From IMG/VR virus record IMGVR_UViG_3300031857_000937, positions 1-30,541 of that record: DNA of 30,541 nucleotides. One strand, written 5' to 3'. Positions 3,005 to 4,310 of this stretch are shown in pieces. Each line of letters opens with the position of its first letter. Position 1 is the stretch's first letter. The DNA is from a virus (Duplodnaviria > Caudoviricetes). The notes beneath the pieces are model-generated. The model did not search any database. It worked only from the letters and a program-made list of their open reading frames with translations, and was not told the DNA's origin. The translations under genes were made by a program, and so were the position numbers.

Positions 3005-3032
3005 TTGACGAACCTAATACATCAGGTACAAT
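3005..3032 (+). promoter_or_regulatory. Sigma70-type promoter driving the repeat array and downstream genes
   Basis: TTGACG (3005-3010)-N16-TACAAT (3027-3032), about 30 nt before the first array unit. Confidence 0.7.
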
Positions 3033-3061: not shown

Positions 3062-3720
3062 GGCCGGATTAGGCTAGGTCGGGCTTGGTAGTCAACGGCA
3101 TGGGCTGTTTACAGCGTCATGGCTTTTCAATGAAAGGTCATTTCGGTGGCAACACCAATCGGACGGCACGGTCGGGAAAGGCTCGGCACGGCGAGGAGAG
3201 GCGGGGACTGGTATGGGCTGTTAACAGCGGGAAGCATTTTTTACAGAGTGCTTTTCGGTGGCAACACCAAAGTGGCGTGGTTGTGGCTCGGAGCAGTGCG
3301 GTCAGGCTCGGTCGGCAAAGGCACGGCGAGGGCTGTTAACAGCGGGATCACTTTTCCATGAGAGGTGATTTCGGTGGCAACACCAAAATGGAAGGGCTGG
3401 CAGCGGCACGGCTAGGAGGGGTGTGGAAGGCTGGGGCATGGGCTGTTAACAGTGGTTAGTCACTTGCAAAGGTGGCTACCCGGTGGCAACACCATTTGGA
3501 CTGGCCTGCCACGGTGCGGCGGGGCGGGGTCGGGCATGGAAATTCTGGGTAAAACAAGGGCTGTTAACAGCGTTATGAGTCTTCATTGAGGGTTCATCTC
3601 GGTGGCAACACCAAGTGGCTTGGACACGCCGGGAATGGCTAGGAGGGGCGTGGATTGGCAGGGGCTAATGTAGCGTCATGACACTTCAATGAGGTGTCAT
3701 TTCGATGCAAAGCGTGCATC
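3062..3720 (+). ncRNA. Tandem array of six putative guide RNAs: GGH-NN pentamer tract + three hairpins (VIPR-like)
   Basis: Units at 3062-3156, 3165-3268, 3274-3384, 3390-3493, 3498-3612, 3617-3720. Each has 8-12 pentamers (50 of 60 start with GG; third base never G), then GGGCTGTTAACAGC, a variable covarying stem-loop and GGTG-GCAA-CACC. The last unit has divergent versions that still pair. Confidence 0.85.
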
Positions 3721-3740: not shown

Positions 3741-4310
3741 ATGAAAACAATCGCAGTTCAATTAACAGGCAAGGCTCCTTTTCTCATGCACTCGGACCGC
3801 TTTGCTAACCCGCTTGACCCACTTGCAAAGGCCCACAAAGAGCTGACCAGCAAGCGCAAGAAAACAGACGACGACCACACTGCCATCGCGCGCAGTGAGT
3901 TCATCGGCGGCTGCTACTGGCGCAAGGACGTTGGCTTCTTCTTGCCAGCACAGAACCTCGATGCGTGCCTGATCGCCGCAGCCAAGTTGCAAAAGCTCGG
4001 AGTTAAGTTCAAGCAGGGCGTGCAGGTATTGGAAGATGAGCTTACGTTTACGGGGTACGACAAGAAAACTCCCGAGCAACTATGGGAAGACCCAGAGCAC
4101 ATTGACTGCCGTGGTGTCAAGGTTGGCATGGCAAAGATCATGCGCTACCGCCCCATCCTTCGCAAGTGGTCTCTGAATGCAACCATCGTTGTCAACGAAG
4201 AAGTGGTCAACCTCAACGAAGTAAAGAAGGCTGTGCAAGATGCTGGAGCCCTGATTGGTTTGGGCGACTACCGCCCACGCTTTGGCCGTTTCAATGTGGA
4301 GTTCATTTGA
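3741..4310 (+). CDS. RAMP/Cas7-like RNA-binding protein (189 aa), putative effector of the upstream array (Vipr-like)
   Basis: AAGGAA Shine-Dalgarno then ATG 3741. N-terminal strand I.V.LTG.APFLMH, central LPAQNL.ACL..AAK helix and C-terminal glycine-rich loop GALIGLGDYRPRFGRFNV follow the RAMP (RRM-fold) pattern. Lies immediately downstream of the array. Confidence 0.75.
   Translation: MKTIAVQLTGKAPFLMHSDRFANPLDPLAKAHKELTSKRKKTDDDHTAIARSEFIGGCYWRKDVGFFLPAQNLDACLIAAAKLQKLGVKFKQGVQVLEDELTFTGYDKKTPEQLWEDPEHIDCRGVKVGMAKIMRYRPILRKWSLNATIVVNEEVVNLNEVKKAVQDAGALIGLGDYRPRFGRFNVEFI

Follow-up and report, generated by a model that had tools for sequence, protein, structure and literature searches.

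A type II VIPR array of a tailed phage: five of its six guides fit recombinase genes of four families and an HGGxSTG-domain gene at the first two codon positions

In the VIPR systems described so far, Vipr polymerises on pentamers, the NN pairs of which bind DNA with a one-base skip (10.64898/2026.04.26.720920). This binding blocks transcription from either strand, the skipped base falls on codon position 3, and a guide of Escherichia phage SUSP1 that addresses a satellite recombinase in its catalytic core prevents excision; what has been published on the code and on this anti-recombinase logic concerns a single E. coli phage and a single satellite family (10.64898/2026.04.26.720920; 10.64898/2026.10.15.759431). 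Our original prediction for the locus studied here relied on the one-base-skip rule and on the argument that a guide ignoring wobble positions resists synonymous escape. The rule is correct, but it is not new, as it has already been published together with the wobble register and the synonymous-escape argument. What is new is the targets of the guides.

The locus lies in a stretch of 30,541 nt (hereafter the window), which is part of a tailed phage: it is 99.99% identical, across all its 30,541 bases, to a 59,870-nt viral record (G343) that encodes terminase, portal and major head proteins. The array (approximately 3062-3720; Table 1) is composed of six units, each made of a pentamer tract followed by a tail of about 56 nt, and the arrangement of its guides upstream of vipr and of a vap1 homolog identifies the locus, on sequence grounds, as a type II VIPR, a CRISPR-like silencing system. 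An independent parse reproduces all six NN strings, U1 to U6, as first read. Guide length ranges from 8 to 12 units, U1 with its 8 units falling below the type II norm of 9-16 GGY/NN pentamers, and the scaffolds are degenerate, with GGY in 35/58 units and GG followed by any base in 49/58. The tails have fixed ends and a hairpin of 19 predicted pairs, 8 of which show compensatory changes among 12 tails. Vipr keeps H17, K33, R39, K82, G87, R137, D176 and R178, the equivalents of functional residues named in its structural description (10.64898/2026.04.26.720927). The vap1 homolog shares phrog_5926 with the gene that follows vipr in Felixounavirus phage allfine (not in SUSP1 itself), the two proteins being 21% identical (pairwise E=3e-6).

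Table 1. Features of the VIPR locus (positions in the window).
Feature	Position	Strand	Reading or basis
Sigma-70-like promoter	3005..3032	+	Consensus match only, 10/12; 2 sites vs 1.1 in shuffles
Guide U1, 8 pentamers	3062..3101	+	Antisense in frame, C-terminal catalytic motif of tyrosine integrase
vrRNA tail 1	3102..3157	+	Conserved ends, covarying central hairpin
Guide U2, 10 pentamers	3165..3214	+	Sense in frame, catalytic motif of large serine recombinases
vrRNA tail 2	3215..3269	+	Tail alignment
Guide U3, 9 pentamers from 3285 and two 5' units	3274..3329	+	Antisense in frame, P4-type integrases just after H-x-x-R
vrRNA tail 3	3330..3385	+	Tail alignment
Guide U4, 10 pentamers	3390..3439	+	Antisense in frame, arm-binding tyrosine integrases (IPLTPYVAHL)
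vrRNA tail 4	3440..3494	+	Tail alignment
Guide U5, 12 pentamers	3498..3557	+	Sense in frame, 5' end of HGGxSTG-domain genes on small islands
vrRNA tail 5	3558..3613	+	Tail alignment
Guide U6, 9 pentamers	3617..3661	+	Without convincing target
Last tail, diverged	3662..3720	+	Tail alignment
vipr, 189-aa RAMP-like effector	3741..4310	+	SUSP1 Vipr (PDB 36pp) E=7.8e-46; phrog_4652
vap1 homolog, 159 aa	4310..4789	+	phrog_5926

With the type II VIPR of SUSP1, the locus shares the operon of vipr and vap1, the pentamer guides with a structured tail, the one-base skip at codon position 3, a guide that matches a satellite recombinase in its catalytic core and the lack of a self-target. The SUSP1-clade guides converge on one satellite family (18/20), whereas four recombinase families and an HGGxSTG gene are matched here, and the targets are integrase-primase islands, not F5 satellites as in the SUSP1 system (10.64898/2026.04.26.720920; 10.64898/2026.10.15.759431). 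Furthermore, Vipr is only about 40% identical to Felixounavirus Vipr, and the whole array is located upstream of vipr. The type II character, the multi-guide arrays and the wobble register are also shared with the VIPR clade of Pseudomonas fulva prophages, but the P. fulva guides mainly match prophage lysis-lysogeny regulators (10.64898/2026.04.26.720920), which none of the five assigned guides does here.

The reading by eye that the window contains no self-target is borne out, as the best gap-1 scores (67-78%) are the same as those of shuffled guides; no site scoring above shuffles or reaching 80% is present in the window at gaps 0-3 or in G343 at gap 1. No U2 match is found in five related phage records, nor any integrase among the 33 ORFs of G343 outside the window and the 16 window ORFs scanned. 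Besides the VIPR locus, the phage carries several HNH/endonuclease VII genes, a ParB-like gene and a GroES homolog (G343 L516-L517; window:1173-1640), and a 21-nt inverted repeat surrounds a tRNA-like stretch, recognised by eye, upstream of a divergent nuclease gene (window:2450-2598). Contigs from RNA libraries cover the array and vipr of close relatives with a best share of 0.32, runs with a small share being counted as no evidence; such contigs cannot show transcription or its ends. In one run (X1, window:3398), a U4 variant resembling that of sister locus L001 is flanked by other neighbouring guides, which shows that arrays of close relatives turn over.

The guides were analysed together with those of 49 related vipr loci; 185 guides, 127 of them unique, were parsed from 48 of these loci and the window. 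NN pairs were read as codon positions 1 and 2 on both strands, and the candidate motifs thus obtained were tested by frame-blind DNA pattern scans. The genome samples consisted of 139 genomes of one genus, the search being centred on Limnohabitans, and of 201 genomes of the family.

The U2 core (nine units, 18 bases) is present in approximately 740 stored viral stretches, a figure extrapolated from 11 of the 64 parts. In exact viral scans with three further 18-base patterns, the U5 and U4 cores had no match, and the sole match of the U3 core (L050) was rejected as a chance hit in an unrelated small gene. All 120 fetched U2 matches, at 98 distinct DNA sites, read Y-T-R-K-S-T-(E/D)-(E/D)-G-L in frame, and in all 120 the site is preceded by TA, the unit that longer sister guides have at that place. 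The whole guide scores 18/20, since its tenth unit is mismatched. The matched proteins contain Resolvase and Recombinase domains in 16/16 tested cases, and the Y-T-R-K-S motif contains the catalytic serine of this recombinase class. In the 139 genus genomes, 9/15 matches with up to three mismatches correspond to the recombinase motif (seven translated, two read off the listing), compared to 4 matches for the control. The predicted gap of one base stands at two mismatches, where four matches are unique to gap 1; it does not at three, gap 1 (15 matches) not exceeding gap 2 (20), while gaps 0, 2 and 3 yield 6, 20 and 2 matches in these genomes, all at three mismatches. With a one-base gap, a sister guide to a second motif matches 99 of the 120 U2 loci; gaps of 0, 2 or 3 bases give it no match there.

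At one other position of the recombinase genes that is matched by clade guides, located by protein motif in 97 genes, the majority base has a share of 0.89 at codon position 1, 1.00 at position 2 and 0.63 at position 3, and the pairwise identity is 0.92 at the positions read by the guide versus 0.78 overall. This conservation of positions 1 and 2 over position 3 supports the synonymous-escape argument. The skip and the codon register hold for five of the six guides, U6 being the exception, and the skipped base is codon position 3 in 5/5 assigned guides, although this is not an unbiased count because the scans find conserved sites and thereby favour targets in wobble register.

U4 matches arm-binding tyrosine integrases. 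Its pattern was scanned with unit 2 left open, as that unit differs in sister locus L001, and matches about 140 GTDB stretches, mostly from Betaproteobacteria. On the opposite strand, 118/120 matches read I/M-P-L-T-P-Y-V-A-x-L in tyrosine integrases, the two others being unrelated and counted as misses; the sense peptide initially proposed for U4 is thus wrong, the target frame being antisense. The guide scores 20/20 at 30 loci with 30 different DNA sequences, and all 8 matched proteins tested contain Phage_integrase and Arm-DNA-bind_3 domains. The genus sample contains 7 matches versus 0 for the controls; the three best (0, 1 and 1 mismatches, one of them in the seed genome) are the arm-binding integrase, and three other fetched matches, with 2 mismatches, are a different gene. 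Downstream of the matched integrase, ORFs resembling restriction-modification genes are seen by eye, without family scan, at two loci (L214, L221), so that some targets may be defence islands.

The assignment of U1 to the catalytic tail of a tyrosine integrase is a candidate based on one genome. At locus L486 of genome G319, U1 matches 16/16 bases in an antisense, in-frame reading. The matched stretch, G-H-K-S-L-M-V-L-K-R-Y-Y-R, closes a 338-aa Phage_integrase protein and contains the catalytic tyrosine. This locus was found with the 16-base core of a sister guide (L005), which has 44 matches in the 139 genus genomes, one of them without mismatch; the U1 site fits the sister guide at 20/20 bases as well, so that, over the two guides, six bases outside the searched core also agree. 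At even base use, about 4e-5 perfect matches of this type would be expected (estimate). Two earlier assignments of U1, to a serine-recombinase motif and then to XerD, were dropped once L486 was found. U1 is not enriched in the 201 family genomes (62 matches versus more than 100 for the control), its 7 matches in viral contigs (2 distinct sequences) are out of register, and none of the 20 viral-contig matches of the L005 core is convincing.

U5 and U3 both lead to small islands. The full 24-base pattern of U5 has no match in metagenomes and none within three mismatches in the 139 genus genomes; when unit 9 is left open and the last two units are dropped, 31 metagenome loci are matched. In 25 of them, which represent 15 distinct sites, the N-terminus of a small ORF reads L-L-T-A-G-G-R-I-x-C-x-x-C. 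The other 6/31 are unrelated and counted as misses, and the whole guide reaches 21/24 at best, without any perfect match. The resemblance of the U5 peptide to HGGxSTG-type proteins, only loosely suspected at the outset, is confirmed: all 8 ORFs with the matched N-terminus that were tested score above the cut-off of the HGGxSTG model NF041373.

The HGGxSTG genes are located at the end of small islands, many U5 contigs being too short for their island content to be judged. In one of them (L300), an integrase end, AlpA, a P4-family primase and the HGGxSTG gene lie within 4.4 kb, the integrase being cut at the contig end and assigned by motif. A tyrosine integrase is present in each of L292, L297 and L309, a primase/helicase is recognisable in L297 and L309, and the L309 island adjoins a tRNA gene; the L309 integrase has the same Pfam pair as the L486 protein, but U1 scores only 10/16 there. 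Phage satellites of the PICI/P4-like type carry an integrase, an AlpA-like regulator and a primase-helicase within a few kb. The islands matched by U3 and U5 resemble them in this gene set, and L300 has all the traits by which satellites are recognised (integrase, AlpA and primase/helicase, small size, no virion gene seen). The HGGxSTG zinc finger occurs with terminase small subunits, which is taken as a lead only; a literature search for HGGxSTG yielded no paper and no described role.

U3, which in antisense reads S-V-F-R-D-W-A-A-E, meets U5 on one island, L300, which was selected by U5 alone. U3 scores 16/18 on the L300 integrase, and 20/22 with its two additional 5' units (3274-3284), which lie across a 6-nt slip and both match the L300 target; no exact target was found. 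In the 201 family genomes, U3 has 50 matches versus 25 for the controls, and P4-type integrases account for 5 of the 30 loci fetched. Its assignment to P4-type integrases follows from 13 clade guides, which vary and extend as the codons of these integrases predict.

The clade set comprises 105 unique guides from loci with a Vipr at least 72% identical, a match being defined by at least 85%. The five target families are matched by 47/105 guides (5 when shuffled), a count that includes the sites of the window guides because these guides served to find the loci of the panel; 44/47 are in wobble register. Many clade guides match other positions of the same genes, beyond the window-guide sites. The targets are serine recombinases for 17 guides, P4-type integrases for 13, HGGxSTG genes for 13 and two other integrases for 2 each; the 13 HGGxSTG guides address five sites of one gene.

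Composite guides are also found among the sister loci. In L016 (3589-3678), the 5' half matches HGGxSTG genes and the 3' half is the U2 recombinase block, with two shared units forming the junction; L018, L022, L028, L029 and L033 also carry fusions of the U2 block with other blocks. These arrangements suggest that guides recombine at short shared stretches, and such guides may address two genes. L033 carries a second vrRNA array on the minus strand (about 2389-2826), upstream of the main one. A conserved sister guide family (L001:2834-2903, L008:3725-3784, L012:3634-3703) is absent from the window and has no target among the fetched loci, and other recurrent families (L017, L022, L031; L009, L014, L007) are without an assigned target or match genes close to serine recombinases.

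Taken together, five of the six guides fit conserved motifs of four integrase families and of the HGGxSTG gene at the first two positions of each codon, and it is probable, with good confidence, that the array silences these genes and thereby prevents satellite excision and hijack. Early in infection, the array would most likely be transcribed together with vipr and vap1, Vipr would assemble on each guide, the complexes would bind the matched integrase and HGGxSTG genes, and their repression would leave resident islands integrated in the host chromosome. We infer parasitism of this phage by the matched islands and, as its host, a Limnohabitans-like betaproteobacterium, suggested by L222 and G319, the search having been centred on that genus. 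A wider reading, to which we give somewhat less than an even chance, is that VIPR could act in this phage clade as a broad-spectrum immobiliser: each guide would spell a protein motif common to hundreds of unrelated elements, a single array would cover four recombinase families, some sister guides would be fusions that address two different genes, and the concentration of 13 guides on the HGGxSTG gene would mark it as the packaging-hijack factor of the islands.

Alternatively, the guides could be aimed mainly at competing temperate phages and at cargo islands instead of satellites that parasitise this phage, integrase silencing then stopping the co-induction, integration or spread of competitors. 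U2 targets are indeed common in viral contigs of up to 84 kb, some U4 integrases head islands resembling restriction-modification or prophage regions (ORFs judged by eye), and the P. fulva VIPR aims at prophages (10.64898/2026.04.26.720920). We nevertheless consider this rather unlikely as a general explanation, as U3, U5 and 26 sister guides point to small integrase-primase-HGGxSTG islands in which no virion gene is seen; the satellite and competitor readings can both hold, for different guides.

For U6, the only candidate target is a group I intron, at its P3-P4 core, carried by the capsid gene of competing T7-like phages, and we regard this as quite doubtful. The only two 18/18 matches (L333 and L340) lie in related T7-like major capsid genes, in an intron-like insert with an endonuclease VII ORF that begins inside the intron core (L333:3970-4480 and L340). 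The L333 insert matches Rfam RF00028 with E=1.4e-8 and 40 bits, below the 50-bit gathering cut-off, and no intron is found at gathering score in 16 U6 loci. The match is at chance level, since 24 distinct contexts match the 16-base core and one or two of them would fit two more bases; furthermore, both introns belong to one family and no sister guide matches them. The 36 viral matches of the U6 core have no gene in common, nor do those in genomes (10 versus 12 for the control in the 201 family genomes, 12 versus 5 in the 139 genus genomes). Three consecutive NN units are common to U4 and U6, which are 87% identical over 23 nt (window:3405-3427 and 3632-3654), and U6 may be derived from a U4-like guide.

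Host genes are very unlikely targets of these guides, whether xerD for U1 or a chromosomal hydrolase-like gene for U3. U1 does score 14/16 on a XerD-like gene (L433 and others) and U3 16-17/18 on a recurring host gene (17/18 in the sense frame), but the L486 integrase accommodates both U1 and its sister guide in full, the latter scoring only 15/20 on the XerD-like site, and the variation of the U3 family follows P4-integrase codons. That the matches are coincidental, any codon-like gapped pattern finding some conserved motif, is scarcely credible: chance matches did occur, as seen above for L050, the U1 viral contigs and the sister core, but mobile-element genes are hit by five of the six guides, the NN strings persist in sister guides whose scaffolds differ, and shuffled guides match far less often.

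Neither the breadth of a single array nor the focus on HGGxSTG genes was found in the VIPR papers searched, the supplementary target tables of which may list this clade; the PMC13142463 supplement gives no match for integrase, recombinase or HGG. Silencing of recombinase and HGGxSTG genes by this phage would extend the published anti-recombinase logic to four recombinase families, in freshwater and in a betaproteobacterial context. The guide-target pairs given here are exact and can be tested in a reporter assay. Finally, the guide repertoire points to what satellites need, and the repeated targeting of the HGGxSTG gene provides a lead to the function of that domain.
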